Source: an archaeon | GTDB lineage: Archaea; Undinarchaeota; CAZHTU01; JBDRCC01 | NCBI GenBank assembly: GCA_043822065.1 | Contig: JBDRCC010000018.1 | Coordinates: 1 to 11,893, forward strand | Direction of reading: 5' to 3' | Length of the DNA: 11,893 nt | Shown here: piece after piece, positions 2,451 through 6,914 of the stretch | Layout of the letters: every line of letters starts with the position of its first letter | Position numbering within the stretch: the first letter of the stretch is position 1 | Made by a program: the position numbers and the translations under genes | Notes under the pieces: model-generated | Database searches by the model: none | What the model saw: the letters and a program-made list of their open reading frames with translations, nothing else | What the model was told of the DNA's origin: nothing

Positions 2451-3799
2451 TATAACAGAAATGTCCTGTTGTCTGTCTTTTCAGTCAGTTCACCTGAATA
2501 GTTGGTAAGCATTATTTTCTTGGCCTCTTCCTGCGTTTTTGCCTGGGGCAGCGCCCATCCTAGCTTTACATAGGCAGTTTCAGGGAGCATGTCACCAAGC
2601 GGCACGACCCCTATAGACTGCAGGTCCCTTGCAGGCGAATATACATTCATCTGGACCCTGCCGTAGATGCACTGCGAAGCCATCCCAACAAAGCCCCCTG
2701 AGTCGATGAATTCTCGTATATTCTCGAAAAGCTCGGCGTTCTTTGTCGTATGCTCGTCTATCTTTGTGATGGGCAGCTGCCCTAAGCCGGTCCCTTCAAA
2801 GATTATACCCTTGTAGCCAAGTTTTGACAAATTGGAGATGCACGCCGGGTCAAAGCCAGGGTAGGATTTTATGAGGGCGACTTTCTCCTCGAATTTGTCC
2901 TTTGTGTCCACTTTTCGATTTTTGTCCCTTTTCTGGTAGTCGCTGCGGAGGAACTCTATCTTTCCGTCAGGCCAGACCTTTGCGAAAGGCCTCTGGTTCA
3001 CTGAGCGGAACGCATCCCGCCTTGAGGTGTGGAGCTTGCGGACTTTAGTCCCTTCGTGGATGTAGCAGTACTCGTCTGACTCGTTGGCGTGCATGCAAAC
3101 GACGACCCCTGCAAAGTCGGCTTTTGCTGCGAAATGCGCCGCGCAGATGAGATTTTGGGCGGCATCGGACGAGCCGCGGTCAGATGATCTTTGGGACCCG
3201 ACGAGGACGACAGGGACGGGCAGGAAACGCAGGGCGAATGCGAGGGCGGCGGAGGTGAAGTGAAGTGTGTCAGTGCCATGAGGCACGACTACTCCGTCGA
3301 CGTTTTTTGAGAGCTCCTTGCAGATCTCCTTAGCCATTAAGGTATAGTGGATTGGCCGGATATTCTCTGAAAACACGTTTAGGGGGGCCCGAGCATCTAT
3401 ATTGGCGATTTCATTAAGCTCGGGGACCATGCTGACCAAGTCCTCCGGCGTGAATTGGGGGAGTACGCCGCCAGTCCTGTAATCTACCTTTGAGGCAATT
3501 GTTCCCCCCATGTGGAGGATGCTGATGGTTGGCTTTTTAGGGTCTTTCTGGAGCTCTATCCGGGAGGATTTCTTCAAGAGCTTAGACTCCAGCTTTTCAA
3601 TCTTTTCGTTTCCGCTTATCTCGATGCCCCGGTTATACCCGCTTTTGAGCTTTAGGACTATGTGGGCGTCGTCGCTGAGCTCTGTCCGCGGCATTATGAT
3701 GCCTTCGTAGGCGTCCTTCCCGGACTTTAGGAGTATTTTGTCCCCCACTGAAACCTTGTATTTTTCAAGAATTTTCTTTGACAAGCCAGCGTAAGCCAT
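2450..3799 (-). CDS. gatD: Glu-tRNA(Gln) amidotransferase subunit D (asparaginase-like glutaminase)
   Basis: KLKSGYNRG N-terminal domain, GGTIASKVDYRTG, HGTDT, GSQRSSDRGSSD, VRKLHTSRRDAF, GTGLG, DMLPETAYVKL. Start placed at ATG 3799 (449 aa) rather than TTG 3853. The stop overlaps the gatE start (TAATG). Confidence 0.97.
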   Translation of the reverse strand: MAYAGLSKKILEKYKVSVGDKILLKSGKDAYEGIIMPRTELSDDAHIVLKLKSGYNRGIEISGNEKIEKLESKLLKKSSRIELQKDPKKPTISILHMGGTIASKVDYRTGGVLPQFTPEDLVSMVPELNEIANIDARAPLNVFSENIRPIHYTLMAKEICKELSKNVDGVVVPHGTDTLHFTSAALAFALRFLPVPVVLVGSQRSSDRGSSDAAQNLICAAHFAAKADFAGVVVCMHANESDEYCYIHEGTKVRKLHTSRRDAFRSVNQRPFAKVWPDGKIEFLRSDYQKRDKNRKVDTKDKFEEKVALIKSYPGFDPACISNLSKLGYKGIIFEGTGLGQLPITKIDEHTTKNAELFENIREFIDSGGFVGMASQCIYGRVQMNVYSPARDLQSIGVVPLGDMLPETAYVKLGWALPQAKTQEEAKKIMLTNYSGELTEKTDNRTFLL

Positions 3800-3944: not shown

Positions 3945-4070
3945 TGCCCAAGAATAATCCGAACTTTGCCCAAAGTTTGGTTATTTCGAACGTGTATTGA
4001 AACATCATAGCCCTTGAAGATTTTTGCCCAATCCAATCAAAGGACTAATCAATTTCTATTTGCCCAAGAA
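3945..4070 (+). repeat. Four direct copies of TGCCCAA upstream of ftsZ
   Basis: TGCCCAA at 3945, 3967, 4025 and 4061; copies 2-4 are TTTGCCCAA; copies 1 and 4 are TGCCCAAGAA. Confidence 0.85.
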
Positions 4071-4120: not shown

Positions 4121-5356
4121 ATGAGCTTTGCATCGTTCCTAGAAAGGGTATCGGATGAAGTTGAGGCACCGCCTCATCTTAGTCCGCAACAGCCTGTTTC
4201 TGAGCCGTCGCACGAGACGGCTGAGAGGAGGCCAGAATCCACGCAGCCGAAACCGCATGTCGAATTTAAATCTGAGGACAATTTTGACGGTTTTGAAACG
4301 CCCGACGCAAGGATAGTAATAGTCGGGGTTGGCGGCGCTGGAAACAACACCGTGACGCGGCTCGTCAATATGGGCGGGGCTCACGGCGCAGAAACTGCCA
4401 TACTCAACACTGACAAGCAGCACCTTAAGGTCTCAAAGGCTGACAAAAAGCTCCTTATCGGCTACGAGCTGACAAAGGGCCTTGGCGCCGGCGGATTCCC
4501 GAAAATAGGCAGGGAAGCTGCCCTTGAGAGCAAGGATGAAATACGGGACCTAGTAAGGAACGCAAACCTCTGCTTCCTGTCAACCGGACTTGGCGGGGGC
4601 ACGGGCACGGGAGCCGTGTCAGTCGTCGCGGAGCTTGCCAAGAAAGAGGGTGCGATAGTAATTGCAGTCTGCACCATGCCTTTCAACATGGAAAAAGCCA
4701 GAATCGAGAAAGCTGAGGAAGGCCTTATCCAGCTGAGGGAGCTGGCAGACACAGTAATAGTCATAGACAACAACAAGCTGGTCGAATACGTCCCGGACCT
4801 GCCCCTGAACAAGGCATTCGCCGTGGCGGACGAGCTGATTGCAACTATGATTCGGGGGATATCTGAGACGATAACCAAACCGTCTCTCGTAAACCTCGAT
4901 TTCGCCGACATAAAGGCGACCATGAGCAACGGCGGCGTTGCCATGATTGGAGTAGGAGAATCAAACACCAAAAACAGAGCTGAAGAAGCTGTGCAGGACG
5001 CATTGCGCCACCCGCTCCTGGACGTGGACTTTAAGGGCGCCACTGGCGCGCTTATCCACATAACGGGTGGAGAAGACCTAAGCCTGTCGGAGGCCACAAA
5101 AGTAGGTGAGATGGTTTCCAACCACTTAGACCCGCATGCGCAAGTAATATGGGGAGCAAGGATTGACCCAGGCTATACCGGGAAACTGCAAGTGATGTGC
5201 ATCCTGACCGGAGTAAAATCCCCGCAGATACTGGGCAGGCTGCCAATGGGCACGGCACGCAGCGTAGCGATGCGCAGTGAAGAGCTGCCGCTGACGCCGT
5301 ATGTCCCGCGGAAACCGCCACTGCTCAGGGAGATGAACATAGACTACATCTACTAA
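4121..5356 (+). CDS. ftsZ: Cell division protein FtsZ, archaeal FtsZ2-type
   Basis: VGVGGAGNN, NTDKQHL, GLGAGG, tubulin signature GGGTGTG, T7 loop NLDFAD, VIWGA. RIVIVG, KAEEGL, ISETITxPSLxNLD and HPLLDVD resemble haloarchaeal FtsZ2 as I recall it (paralog call less certain than family call). C-terminal NIDYIY resembles the archaeal GID-type tail. Confidence 0.97.
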   Translation: MSFASFLERVSDEVEAPPHLSPQQPVSEPSHETAERRPESTQPKPHVEFKSEDNFDGFETPDARIVIVGVGGAGNNTVTRLVNMGGAHGAETAILNTDKQHLKVSKADKKLLIGYELTKGLGAGGFPKIGREAALESKDEIRDLVRNANLCFLSTGLGGGTGTGAVSVVAELAKKEGAIVIAVCTMPFNMEKARIEKAEEGLIQLRELADTVIVIDNNKLVEYVPDLPLNKAFAVADELIATMIRGISETITKPSLVNLDFADIKATMSNGGVAMIGVGESNTKNRAEEAVQDALRHPLLDVDFKGATGALIHITGGEDLSLSEATKVGEMVSNHLDPHAQVIWGARIDPGYTGKLQVMCILTGVKSPQILGRLPMGTARSVAMRSEELPLTPYVPRKPPLLREMNIDYIY

Positions 5357-5600
5357 ACCAACACCAACAAACCCGAACTGGGCCGTCCGGAAGGGCGGCC
5401 CTCACACTCCCCGAGAGGAAATAACGCTATAACAACAAACCAACAAACCCCAAAAAACAAAACCAACCCCCTGGGCTGCCTTAACTGGCAGCCCTTCATA
5501 GTCCTTATTTCATAAGGACGCGCACCAACCAACCCCAATATATAACCCCTAAAAACCTCCTGCCTTCTGATTTTCGGGGGGCTTCGGCCCCCTGGAATCC
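5357..5600 (+). ncRNA. Putative structured 3' UTR / small RNA: four hairpins separated by A/C-only linkers
   Basis: Hairpins at 5380-5401 (9 bp, one G-U, GGAA loop), 5473-5494 (8 bp), 5501-5519 (8 bp) and 5569-5599 (cUUCGg loop, G-U pairs). A/C-only runs at 5355-5374, 5431-5471 and 5523-5538. The tetraloops and G-U pairs work on the + strand. Confidence 0.5.
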
Positions 5601-5646
5601 AAAAAGCCCACGGCTAAGTCTGCTTGTCTAATTCGCTAAGTAAAGT

Positions 5647-6114
5647 CTATCTTTCGCGCTTTTCCCACTCGATAACTTCGCCCTTCTCGTCAAGGGTTAC
5701 TGAGTGGATGACGCCTCTGTCCTTGAACTCGAAATAGTAGCCGCCGGCATCGCGCTTCATGGCTTTTATCGGCTCGATGTTGTTCGGAAGCAGCGCGTGG
5801 GTGATTAGGTACTTCTTTGCGATTGAGGTTGCATGCGGAAGGTTTAGTGTGACGGATTTCGCGGAGAACTGGTAGTCCTCATCTTCCTTTTCCGCCTGCG
5901 CGCCAAAGCCGGAGAGCGCAGAGAATGACGTTGCAGCTACCTCTTTTTGCGCTTCGACTGATGAGTAGTCAAGCTCGTGGATGTCCTCCTTGCGGAGCTT
6001 GGCGCCCTTTTGAGGGGCTGGCGGCTTTTTTCCTGACGTAGCGTATGGGTCGCGGAACGGCCCTTCGGTCAGCTCCTCTTTTTTCTTGAAGTGCTTTAAG
6101 ATGTCAAATTTCAT
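5647..6114 (-). CDS. Hypothetical protein, 155 aa (amphipathic N-terminus, low-complexity linker, small alpha/beta PepSY-like C-terminal domain)
   Basis: C-terminal part of the 414-aa track ORF, from MKFDILKHF (ATG 6114). It fills the gap after the permease stop and has a TATA box at the usual distance. The fold guess is by eye. Confidence 0.8.
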   Translation of the reverse strand: MKFDILKHFKKKEELTEGPFRDPYATSGKKPPAPQKGAKLRKEDIHELDYSSVEAQKEVAATSFSALSGFGAQAEKEDEDYQFSAKSVTLNLPHATSIAKKYLITHALLPNNIEPIKAMKRDAGGYYFEFKDRGVIHSVTLDEKGEVIEWEKRER

Positions 6115-6137
6115 GCCTGTAGTAAATGGGGGACGGG

Positions 6138-6152
6138 TATATATTTCTTTCC
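6138..6152 (-). promoter_or_regulatory. Candidate BRE/TATA for the 155-aa gene
   Basis: Minus strand GGAAAGAAATATATA, with the TATA about 24-30 nt upstream of ATG 6114. Confidence 0.55.
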
Positions 6153-6164
6153 AAGGCGGCTGAG

Positions 6165-6914
6165 TTATACCTCTATTTTCGAGAATGCGACGGCGCTGAG
6201 TGTGAAAATGATGATTATGGCGCCTACCAAGACGGCCAAATCTGTGCCGAGACCGAAGAGGGTGGACGATGCAAGGGTGCCGCGCAAGCCGTCGACGCCG
6301 TAGGACAACGGGTCGATGCGCGCGATAAATCCAATTGACGGCGGCAGGTTTTCGATGGGAAACAGCGCACCTGAGAGGAAAAACATGGGCATCAGGAGGA
6401 AGTTCATTATCAGCGGAAACGCGTGCATGTCCTCCATTACTGAAGCAATAGCAGTCCCCATCGCAGTGAAGAGCATGCCGACGAGGAACATAAAAAGCAG
6501 GGCAAGCGGAATCATTGAAGGATTCAGCGGCCTGAAGCCTACGACAAGGGTTATCAAAAGGACGACAATGCCCTGCGCAAAGGCAACGGTCGCGCCGCCG
6601 AGGGTCCTGCCAACGACAATTGTGAGCCTTGAAACCGGTGCCACAAGGGTCTCTTTGAGGAAGCCAAATTGCCGGTCCCATATGACCTCTATCCCCATGA
6701 ACATCGCTGTGAAGAGGATGCCCATCGCGATTATGCCCGGCGCGAGAAAGTCCAGGTAGTTTCCGCCCCCTGCTTTCTGGAATATCGGGCCGAATCCAAA
6801 CCACAGGGCAACAAGGAAAAGCAGAGGCTGGCCGAGCGAGCCAATCATGCGCGAACGCGACCGCACGTACCTCTTCAGCTGGCGTATCCAAAGGATGTAT
6901 ATCTCTTCGAGCAT
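6165..6914 (-). CDS. ABC-2 type exporter permease (DrrB-like)
   Basis: 249 aa with about six hydrophobic segments; YLDFLAPGII, DRQFGFLKETLVAPVSR, PMFFLSGALFPI and DPLSYGVDGLR are ABC-2 membrane motifs; directly follows the ATPase (TAAATG). Confidence 0.95.
   Translation of the reverse strand: MLEEIYILWIRQLKRYVRSRSRMIGSLGQPLLFLVALWFGFGPIFQKAGGGNYLDFLAPGIIAMGILFTAMFMGIEVIWDRQFGFLKETLVAPVSRLTIVVGRTLGGATVAFAQGIVVLLITLVVGFRPLNPSMIPLALLFMFLVGMLFTAMGTAIASVMEDMHAFPLIMNFLLMPMFFLSGALFPIENLPPSIGFIARIDPLSYGVDGLRGTLASSTLFGLGTDLAVLVGAIIIIFTLSAVAFSKIEV

Follow-up and report, generated by a model that had tools for sequence, protein, structure and literature searches.

The gap between ftsZ2 and its convergent neighbor

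The DNA analyzed here (the window) is contig C18, complete at 11,893 bases, of a DPANN archaeon whose assembly totals 1,026,769 bases in 22 contigs and is 82.35% complete. It carries an ftsZ gene (4121..5356, + strand, 411 amino acids), which we refer to as ftsZ2, and a non-coding gap of 290 nucleotides (nt) separates this gene from a convergent gene on the - strand. The gap is a tandem triplication of a unit that consists of a tract composed only of A and C followed by a GC hairpin. In an earlier reading of the letters alone (the first-pass annotation), three A/C tracts of 20, 41 and 16 nt with hairpins had been described, and all of the features listed there were found in place. The size of the gap, which had also been singled out as unusual, exceeds the 95th percentile (265 nt) of 201 convergent gaps with a median of 5 nt, according to gene calls from a crude open reading frame (ORF) map by which the genome is about 92% coding.

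A/C-only tract 1 (5355..5374, + strand, 20 nt) begins within the TAA stop codon of ftsZ2 and contains CCAACAAACCC. It is followed by hairpin 1 (H1; 5380..5401, +), GGGCCGTCC-GGAA-GGGCGGCCC, with 9 bp including one U.G pair and a GNRA loop. Tract 2 (5431..5471, +) is 41 nt long, with A6 and A4 runs that are U-runs on the - strand, and precedes hairpin 2 (H2; 5473..5494, +), GGGCTGCC-TTAACT-GGCAGCCC, with 8 bp. Hairpin 3 (H3; 5501..5519, +) has 8 bp and a 3-nt loop, and its arms and flanks TCATAGTCCTT ... GGACGCGCACCAA are common to the closest reachable relative, a 2-kb metagenome contig (L032) with an FtsZ that is 71% identical. Tract 3 (5523..5538, +, 16 nt) is the third copy of a 16-nt direct repeat, CACCAACAAACCCGAA, which is found at 5362, 5438 and 5523 with 88% identity and spacings of 76 and 85 nt. 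Because the repeat recurs at regular spacing, the modules are tandem duplicates with a period of 76-85 nt, each made of an A/C tract (core CACCAAC[A/C]AACCC) and then a GC hairpin. Successive copies of the repeat are followed by H1, H2 and, further on, hairpin 4 (H4; 5569..5599, +), while H3 is an additional stem within unit 2. H4 has a cUUCGg core, GGGGGC-TTCG-GCCCCC (5577-5592), in an extended stem with two G.U pairs. Between tract 3 and H4, reading by eye picked out a TATA-box-like word, AATATATAA (5537..5545, strand undefined), which resembles (G)TATATAA(A/G) upstream of ftsZ2 here and of many, not all, orthologues. In the same interval, ACCUCCU (5555-5561, +) is identical to the anti-Shine-Dalgarno word at the 3′ end of 16S rRNA; the homologous position in L032 reads GCUCCUG, and orthologue flanks often have UCCCUCC or UCCCACCC after the hairpin.

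The archaeal gene content of the window comprises GatD/GatE, the small and large subunits of RFC, an ABC transporter and FtsZ (Pfam), and no tRNA or tmRNA gene was found in it with ARAGORN. The ftsZ2 product matches Pfam Tubulin and FtsZ_C as well as TIGR00065, and its closest named relative is that of Candidatus Naiadarchaeum limnaeum (64% identity). A second ftsZ paralogue, 54% identical, is located on contig C22 with a secE-like gene directly 3′ of it. Since a secE-like gene after ftsZ is typical of archaeal ftsZ1, it is reasonable to regard the gene in the window as the ftsZ2 paralogue. The C-terminal ...NIDYIY and the position of the stop codon are common to relatives, as read by eye from the orthologue flanks, and therefore the A/C region lies downstream of the gene. 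Upstream of ftsZ2, GCCCAA (mostly as TGCCCAA) occurs four times on the + strand, at 3946, 3968, 4026 and 4062, with no other + strand occurrence in the window and one reverse occurrence at 3155. This array, which the first-pass annotation had also pointed out, does not occur in the 398 nt preceding the L032 orthologue.

On the other side of the gap, a 414-amino-acid ORF (5647-6914, - strand) is probably not a single gene. Its first ~259 residues are rich in Arg, His and Cys and resemble an off-frame translation, and a 249-amino-acid ORF (6165-6914) overlaps it in another frame. The true convergent gene is probably the part encoding 155 amino acids (5647..6114, -; ORF reading), for which no Pfam or NCBIfam match was found. 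Within the gap, neither ATG nor GTG occurs on the + strand, and a 61-amino-acid ORF starting with TTG (5353-5538, -) was rejected as an artefact of G/T codons without start context.

Copies in this genome and behind ftsZ2 in relatives

Pure A/C or G/T tracts of at least 16 nt number 17 in the genome, which is about the random expectation by our own arithmetic. The 290-nt gap holds three of the 17, among them the 41-mer, which no other such tract in the genome exceeds in length. Windows of 100 nt with an A+C content of at least 0.74 or at most 0.26 form 11 regions genome-wide, and the ten besides the gap all overlap called ORFs, two of them straddling gene starts. No general A/C enrichment was detected after stop codons (A+C ~0.51 over 1052 called genes), and the ACCAAC hexamer is not over-represented in the genome (207 found vs. 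about 500 expected). The 11-mer CCAACAAACCC is present four times vs. 0.52 expected; three of these sites are non-coding and belong to the units described here, and one is coding.

One of these units lies outside the window. A copy of unit 1 was found on contig C1 (G000:C1:21758-21777; locus L212, C1:21451-22488), with the hairpin GGGGCUGUC-GAAA-GGCGGCCCC, which includes two G.U pairs, and a 27-nt A/C tract that runs from the stop codon of a DUF7523 gene to a terminal CCAACAAACCC. This setting is convergent as well, with tRNA-Pro(CGG) 44 nt away on the other strand and not including the copy. H1, H2 and the C1 copy fit the pattern GGGCYGYC-N3-7-GRCRGCCC, which has no site beyond these 3 in this genome and none in the 16 others of the phylum. 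Scanning this genome for an A/C tract followed by a hairpin returned 26 hits, of which 3 units are convincing. The DUF7523 homologues (8 of 17 genomes, 25–33% identity) have no unit behind them. A reading of the C1 and C18 copies as att sites or parts of a mobile element was considered by eye and set aside, with ~85% identity over ~45 nt and only 3 copies. In the same C1 locus, the 307-nt gap upstream of an HMG-CoA-synthase-like gene holds the TATA-like ACATATAAACCCCTCC, resembling positions 5540-5561 of the window.

Intergenic regions of this genome contain other palindromes. Perfect hairpins are ~12 times denser outside ORFs (1.27 vs. 0.10 per kb). Families of near-identical palindromes with T-run and A-run arms recur at many sites, as TCAGCTTTTTT-AG-AAAAAAGCTGA and CCTTTCTTTT...AAAAGAAAGG (for example C3:23025, C7:121589, C8:18401 and C20:22386; C1:28683, C7:2270 and C7:100342), and these are probably the usual bidirectional terminators of this genome. 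A 23-nt GC-rich palindrome, TCATGCGGGCG[C/G]AGCCCGCATGA, was seen in two long intergenic regions (C3:17077-17099 and C6:74982-75004).

To look beyond this genome, we used the 17 species genomes that sample this DPANN phylum, in which the window genome is the sole member of its own family, and read 14 usable ftsZ2 orthologue flanks by eye from the printed sequence. The ftsZ2-linked unit was defined as an A/C-only tract of at least 9 nt and then a GGGC or GGCUCC hairpin, directly after the stop codon. Units 1-3 of the window have this form, and so do the flanks of G006, G015 and G007 (one genus), G016 and L032. Together with G005, where a 25-nt A/C tract ends 17 nt before the hairpin, six flanks from four lineages carry the unit. 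The layout in G006, G015 and G007 is TAA-AACCACC[C/T]AC-GGCUCC...GGAGCC-UCCCUC-U7-8, and that of G016 is ACCACCCAAAC...CCGGGCCC-loop-GGGCCCGG-CCCUCCCCUUUU. In G005, a first hairpin is followed by the 25-nt tract and then by GGGCUGC-GAAA-GCGGCCC, a stem and GNRA loop of the kind seen in unit 1 and the C1 copy. The eight flanks without an A/C tract (G004, which has an identical metagenome copy L033; G009; L034; G003; G011; and three of family f8) have hairpins and/or T-runs. Words related to the A/C motif (ACCACCCAC, CACCAAACC and CACCAACC) precede the hairpin in several lineages. The tie to ftsZ2 assumed in the first-pass annotation is thus borne out by a unit behind this gene in several families of the phylum.

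The most extensive similarity is with L032. Positions 5497-5600 of the window are collinear with it through TCATAGTCCTT, GGAC-R-CGCACCAA, CTCCTGCC, TTCTGATTTT(T)CGG and GAATCCA, and the local alignment score of 29 was reached by none of 300 shuffles (17.2 +/- 2.2). The homologous blocks in L032 begin 8 nt past the stop codon; T6 to T8 runs come next, and beyond them lies a co-directional gene. Since the blocks begin so close to the stop codon, units 1 and 2 count as inserted sequence when the window is compared with L032.

The A/C tract plus hairpin does not recur as a general kind of terminator in this genome or in the portions of G006 and G005 that were scanned. Outside long ORFs, 237 kb of G006 contained the ftsZ2 site only, and the same scan of 138 kb of G005, a sample without the ftsZ2 contig, found no site. 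The longest A/C tract downstream of ftsZ has a median of 8 nt and a maximum of 25 nt (G005) in a survey of the 175 of 189 loci with at least 150 nt downstream, compared with 41 nt in the window. As a terminator word, the C/U box TCCCWCYYTTT showed no clear enrichment (5–23 per genome vs. 2–16 for the reversed control).

Other features of ftsZ flanks were noted along the way. In six ftsZ loci of Nanohaloarchaeota (L178, L080, L174, L177, L179 and L180), the first 200 nt after the stop codon have an A+C content of 0.60–0.65 and contain one or two long hairpins with C-rich loop words such as CCCCUCCCCC(C); DPANN archaea more widely may carry structured, C-rich 3′ regions downstream of this ftsZ paralogue. 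In the G005 locus (L013), ~200–300 nt after the ftsZ2 stop codon and past the 3′ hairpins, copies of a ~37-nt unit, CCGTACTACCAGTT[C/T]GAATAA[C/T]TCAAATAGT..., are arranged head to tail.

Strand preference and termination signals

The two strands of the gap differ in predicted structure. The + strand folds at -82.4 kcal/mol, compared with -63.3 +/- 4.6 in dinucleotide shuffles (z = -4.18; 0 of 200 as good), while the - strand (z = -0.22) is equalled by 84 of 200 shuffles. G.U pairing exists in RNA only and becomes an A-C mismatch on the complementary strand. The sense and antisense energies of single hairpins (kcal/mol) favor the + strand for H1 (-20.9/-15.8), H4 (-20.6/-14.4) and the C1 copy (-18.3/-9.8) and, in relatives, for G005 (-22.0/-16.0), G006 (-17.4/-13.6), G015 (-19.5/-14.3) and G007 (-20.4/-15.9). 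Overall, the + strand is favored in 7 of 11 hairpins and the - strand in 2, with 2 neutral. On account of these G.U hairpin energies together with the context of L032, where the next gene is co-directional, we take the ftsZ2 sense RNA to be the structured molecule, by odds of roughly two to one. The + strand had been named as the structured one in the first-pass annotation, and both kinds of folding result agree with it.

The strands also differ in the distribution of U-runs. On the + strand of the gap, a single U4 (5571-5574) followed by C is located 215 nt past the stop codon, leaving 214 nt without a U-tract. It belongs to TTCTGATTTTCGG (5565..5577, +), a putative ftsZ2 termination site in the block common to L032, which has T5C there. 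The - strand contains four U-runs of at least 4 nt: U5 at 5605-5601, U5 at 5555-5551, U4 at 5462-5459 and U6 at 5457-5452. This asymmetry, one run against four, is due to the linkers consisting of A and C only. The sequence feature of archaeal U-tract terminators is therefore present on both strands, with termination itself being a prediction.

Two published studies help to interpret these runs. In Methanococcus, U4 tracts and their number, together with aCPSF1, set termination efficacy (PMC8716108). In Haloferax, a T-stretch ending at C terminates 95%, the median 3′ untranslated region (UTR) is 58 nt long, and T5C is exemplified by the stretch downstream of ftsZ2; the same study reported 503 termination sites with a hairpin immediately before them, and one hairpin that was tested terminated 59% (PMC7237163). 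By the U-tract rule (PMC8716108), the T5 at 5601..5605 on the - strand, 42–46 nt past the stop codon of the convergent gene, is likely its terminator. A 633-amino-acid beta-CASP ORF of the size of aCPSF1 is encoded in this genome.

Likely role of the gap and competing explanations

We estimate a probability of about one half that the gap is an enlarged, structured 3′ UTR and terminator of ftsZ2, which would have arisen from a duplicated end-of-gene module and would pass sense transcription while stopping convergent transcription. An ancestral unit (A/C spacer, GGGC hairpin, C/U box and U-run) would have stood once behind the ftsZ2 stop codon, as it does in relatives, and would have been duplicated twice in this lineage, the copies then diverging and losing the U-runs behind their hairpins. 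RNA polymerase arriving from ftsZ2 would meet no U-tract for 214 nt and end at or after the conserved UUCUGAUUUUC (5565-5575), resulting in an mRNA tail of ~215 nt in which three stable hairpins would stand, a fourth being added by read-through. Because 3′ stem-loops hinder 3′-to-5′ decay, the hairpins of this tail are expected to block it. Linkers without U and G would keep the hairpins independent, as they could neither pair with one another nor cause termination, and the same A-rich linkers would be U-runs on the - strand that stop convergent transcription before it enters ftsZ2 in antisense. Transcription of the gap, the RNA 3′ ends and the stabilizing effect are what we infer from this layout. 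We think that the sense tail of ftsZ2 and termination of the convergent gene in the G/U tracts of the - strand both hold at once. Since the single unit of the relatives resembles an ordinary gene end, with a hairpin and a U-run, an enlarged terminator and 3′ UTR is the parsimonious reading. The first-pass annotation had proposed a structured + strand 3′ UTR or small RNA as part of a new control system; its choice of strand and its link to ftsZ2 can be kept, and in place of such a system the region most likely represents an mRNA tail and terminator zone that has grown in size.

Several observations weigh against this interpretation. H2 and H3 are strand-neutral, the antisense strand is favored in G016 (-18.5/-22.0) and in the outer stem of L032 (-41.0/-43.6), and the stems were picked by + strand pairing, which biases the argument from G.U pairs. 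Covariation offers little help: pairing holds in 24 of 24 cells for the three paralogous copies and in 27 of 27 for the three sequences of the G006 genus, with one CG/UA/UG pair each, yet with three sequences per set these counts were equalled by 318 and 326 of 500 shuffles. A MAFFT alignment of eight units from different families placed the stems out of register. A scan for consensus terminators (GC stem with a T-rich tail within 0–2 nt) gave no + strand site and 4 sites on the - strand, the latter on alternative stems containing G.T pairs (shuffle mean 1.0, standard deviation 1.1), and a lone U4 is a weak terminator by the Methanococcus rule (PMC8716108). Primary sequence is shared with one relative only, L032; a BLAST search with 5490-5612 as query, covering the 17 phylum genomes, had a best E = 0.18 besides the window itself, and the A/C tract is absent from about half of the ftsZ2 orthologues of the phylum.

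Functionally, the nearest counterparts of the element are archaeal U-tract terminators that have long or alternative 3′ UTRs, and it also resembles the bacterial stem-loops at gene ends known as repetitive extragenic palindromic (REP) sequences and bacterial interspersed mosaic elements (BIME). Like the Haloferax T-stretch ending at C, the window has TTCTGATTTTC at 5565-5575 and L032 has T5C, and the beta-CASP ORF has the size of aCPSF1. Compared with the Haloferax median 3′ UTR of 58 nt, however, ~215 nt precede the first U4 here, the three hairpins lack trailing U-runs, and A/C-only linkers do not feature in the signals as described. Bacterial-type intrinsic terminators resemble the units of G006 (GGCUCCUAG...CUGGGAGCC-UCCCUCU8) and G004 (AAGGGGGAA...UUCCCCCUU-CUCU8), and by eye the single units of G006, G015, G007, G004 and G016 all have the intrinsic-terminator feature. 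In the window, by contrast, no hairpin has a + strand U-run after its stem, and the U4 of H4 precedes the stem within its 5′ arm.

REP and BIME elements are GC-rich imperfect palindromes at gene 3′ ends or between convergent genes, arranged in tandem with linkers, and protection of mRNA against 3′ exonucleases as well as weak termination is ascribed to REPs. The unit in the window is similar in having GC palindromes at a gene end and in a convergent gap, in tandem with linkers. REPs, however, are found in tens to hundreds of copies per genome, whereas the stem pattern of the window has 3 sites here and 0 in 16 relatives, with all copies in the same orientation, and this organism is an archaeon. 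No transposase turned up with the unit, though no search aimed at transposases was made. The unit is thus neither a REP, by copy number, nor an intrinsic terminator, by its missing U-tails. The A/C tracts also match the composition of Rho utilisation (rut) sites, which are C-rich, G-poor and unstructured RNA, but no match to the Rho RNA-binding domain (PF07497) was found in this 82.35% complete genome, with 9 of 14 control genomes responding, and we know of no use of Rho in Archaea.

Searches for known RNA families were negative. Rfam 15, a search the first-pass annotation had called for, returned 0 matches at the gathering threshold over the whole window. The best result of a permissive search of 5000-6000 was the terminator stem of CrcZ (338-366), on H4 only (E = 0.33; 13.7 bits vs. 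a gathering threshold of 95). The C1 copy had 0 Rfam matches, and the related loci L032, L013, L009, L008 and L178 had 0 at E <= 0.1. By eye, no RUGAUGA was found on either strand of 5357-5646 and the stems are perfect without a pocket, so nothing points to a C/D-box or H/ACA small RNA (sRNA). At the level of abstracts, the literature searched on archaeal UTRs, terminators and DPANN non-coding RNA describes no ftsZ2 3′ element.

The + strand RNA could also act in another way, a possibility that we consider unlikely. The single-stranded CACCAAC[A/C]AACCC motifs between the hairpins may bind a putative protein or a G/U-rich sRNA, making the gap a regulatory 3′ UTR or scaffold that sets FtsZ2 synthesis, mRNA location or half-life, with the DUF7523 gene as a second target. 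The purity and length of tract 2, the genome maximum at 41 nt, go beyond what a spacer requires, and the related words before the hairpin in several lineages, the absence of the unit as a general terminator type and the copy kept behind the DUF7523 gene would all fit; yet half of the orthologues have no tract and the DUF7523 homologues of relatives have no unit. The joint control with the GCCCAA array that the first-pass annotation had suggested finds no support in 5′-3′ pairing. The duplex between 5′ leader and 3′ region (-28.9 kcal/mol) was equalled by 82 of 100 mononucleotide shuffles, and pairing of the pre-start region with the 3′ flank in 14 orthologues was as good between as within loci (self -13.0 vs. 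cross -12.9 kcal/mol), with no covariation. Because no covariation was seen across orthologues, it is doubtful that CACTCCCC (5405..5412, +), complementary to GGGGAGTG of a purine-rich stretch before the ftsZ2 start, is of significance. Translational control requiring both the 5′ and the 3′ UTR was reportedly observed in haloarchaea by Brenneis and Soppa in 2009 and would set an example of an archaeal 3′ UTR with a function, but the 5′-3′ complementarity in the window is generic pairing of G-rich with C-rich sequence only. An extension of the idea appears improbable to us, namely that the A/C motif and GGGC hairpin would form a dedicated, phylum-wide cis-regulatory element of ftsZ2, read by a specific factor that sets the level of the constriction-type FtsZ, tripled here and copied to DUF7523 as a small post-transcriptional cell-division regulon.

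Alternatively, function may lie on the - strand only, the U-runs and hairpins of the G/U-rich complement being a fail-safe terminator array for the convergent operon and, at C1, for tRNA-Pro, with the A/C composition of the + strand as a by-product. We regard this as unlikely too. It would explain why U-runs and terminator-like sites are concentrated on the - strand and why both locations of the unit are convergent (ftsZ2 vs. the 155-amino-acid gene; DUF7523 vs. tRNA-Pro(CGG)). Transcription entering from that side, however, meets a T5 already 42–46 nt after the stop codon and a second one at 5551-5555, so that units 1 and 2 would rarely be reached, and terminators require U-runs rather than a total lack of A and C. 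The hairpin energies and the co-directional gene downstream in L032 also speak against it. There is only a slight chance that the gap contains one or more independent sRNA genes, either on the + strand from ~25 nt after AATATATAA and comprising H4, or on the - strand from AATATATAA through H3 and H2 to the U-runs at 5462-5452. The likeness of this word to the one upstream of ftsZ2 and of many orthologues, and the typical sRNA end that stable hairpins followed by U-runs would make on the - strand, are set against the lack of a TATA-like word in L032 despite shared flanking blocks, the lack of an Rfam match, and the position of the unit in relatives, where it abuts the stop codon and leaves no room for a promoter.

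Neutral expansion, in which slippage or unequal recombination duplicated a terminator unit and the extra copies have no function, would account for the tandem layout with its 76–85 nt period, the divergence of the copies and the restriction of the expansion to this lineage. We hold it to be quite improbable in view of the small, ~92% coding genome with this gap in the top 5% of convergent gaps, the intact state of all stems, in which pairing survives the differences between copies (one position reads C-G, U.G and U-A), and the A/C purity kept across 41 nt. Read-through of the TAA codon, which would add 52 residues (TNTNKPELGRPEG...) as a low-complexity tail of FtsZ2, was rejected as hardly credible. 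The frame is open for 52 codons past the stop, but this is uninformative because no frame of a sequence made of A and C alone can contain a stop codon, and relatives conserve the ...IDY-x-x end together with the stop position while differing in the sequence downstream.

To our knowledge, post-transcriptional control of archaeal cell-division genes has barely been explored, and we know of almost no experimental RNA biology in DPANN archaea. The outcome of this analysis is a sequence-defined 3′ element linked to one ftsZ paralogue across several families, with a natural dosage series from one unit in relatives to two hairpins in G005 and three units here. If it is merely an enlarged terminator, this would be ordinary biology in an unusual form. 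If the design with U-free sense and U-runs in antisense is true, a compact genome would use it to shield an essential gene from convergent transcription, and the same DNA would also give the ftsZ2 mRNA a long protected tail.

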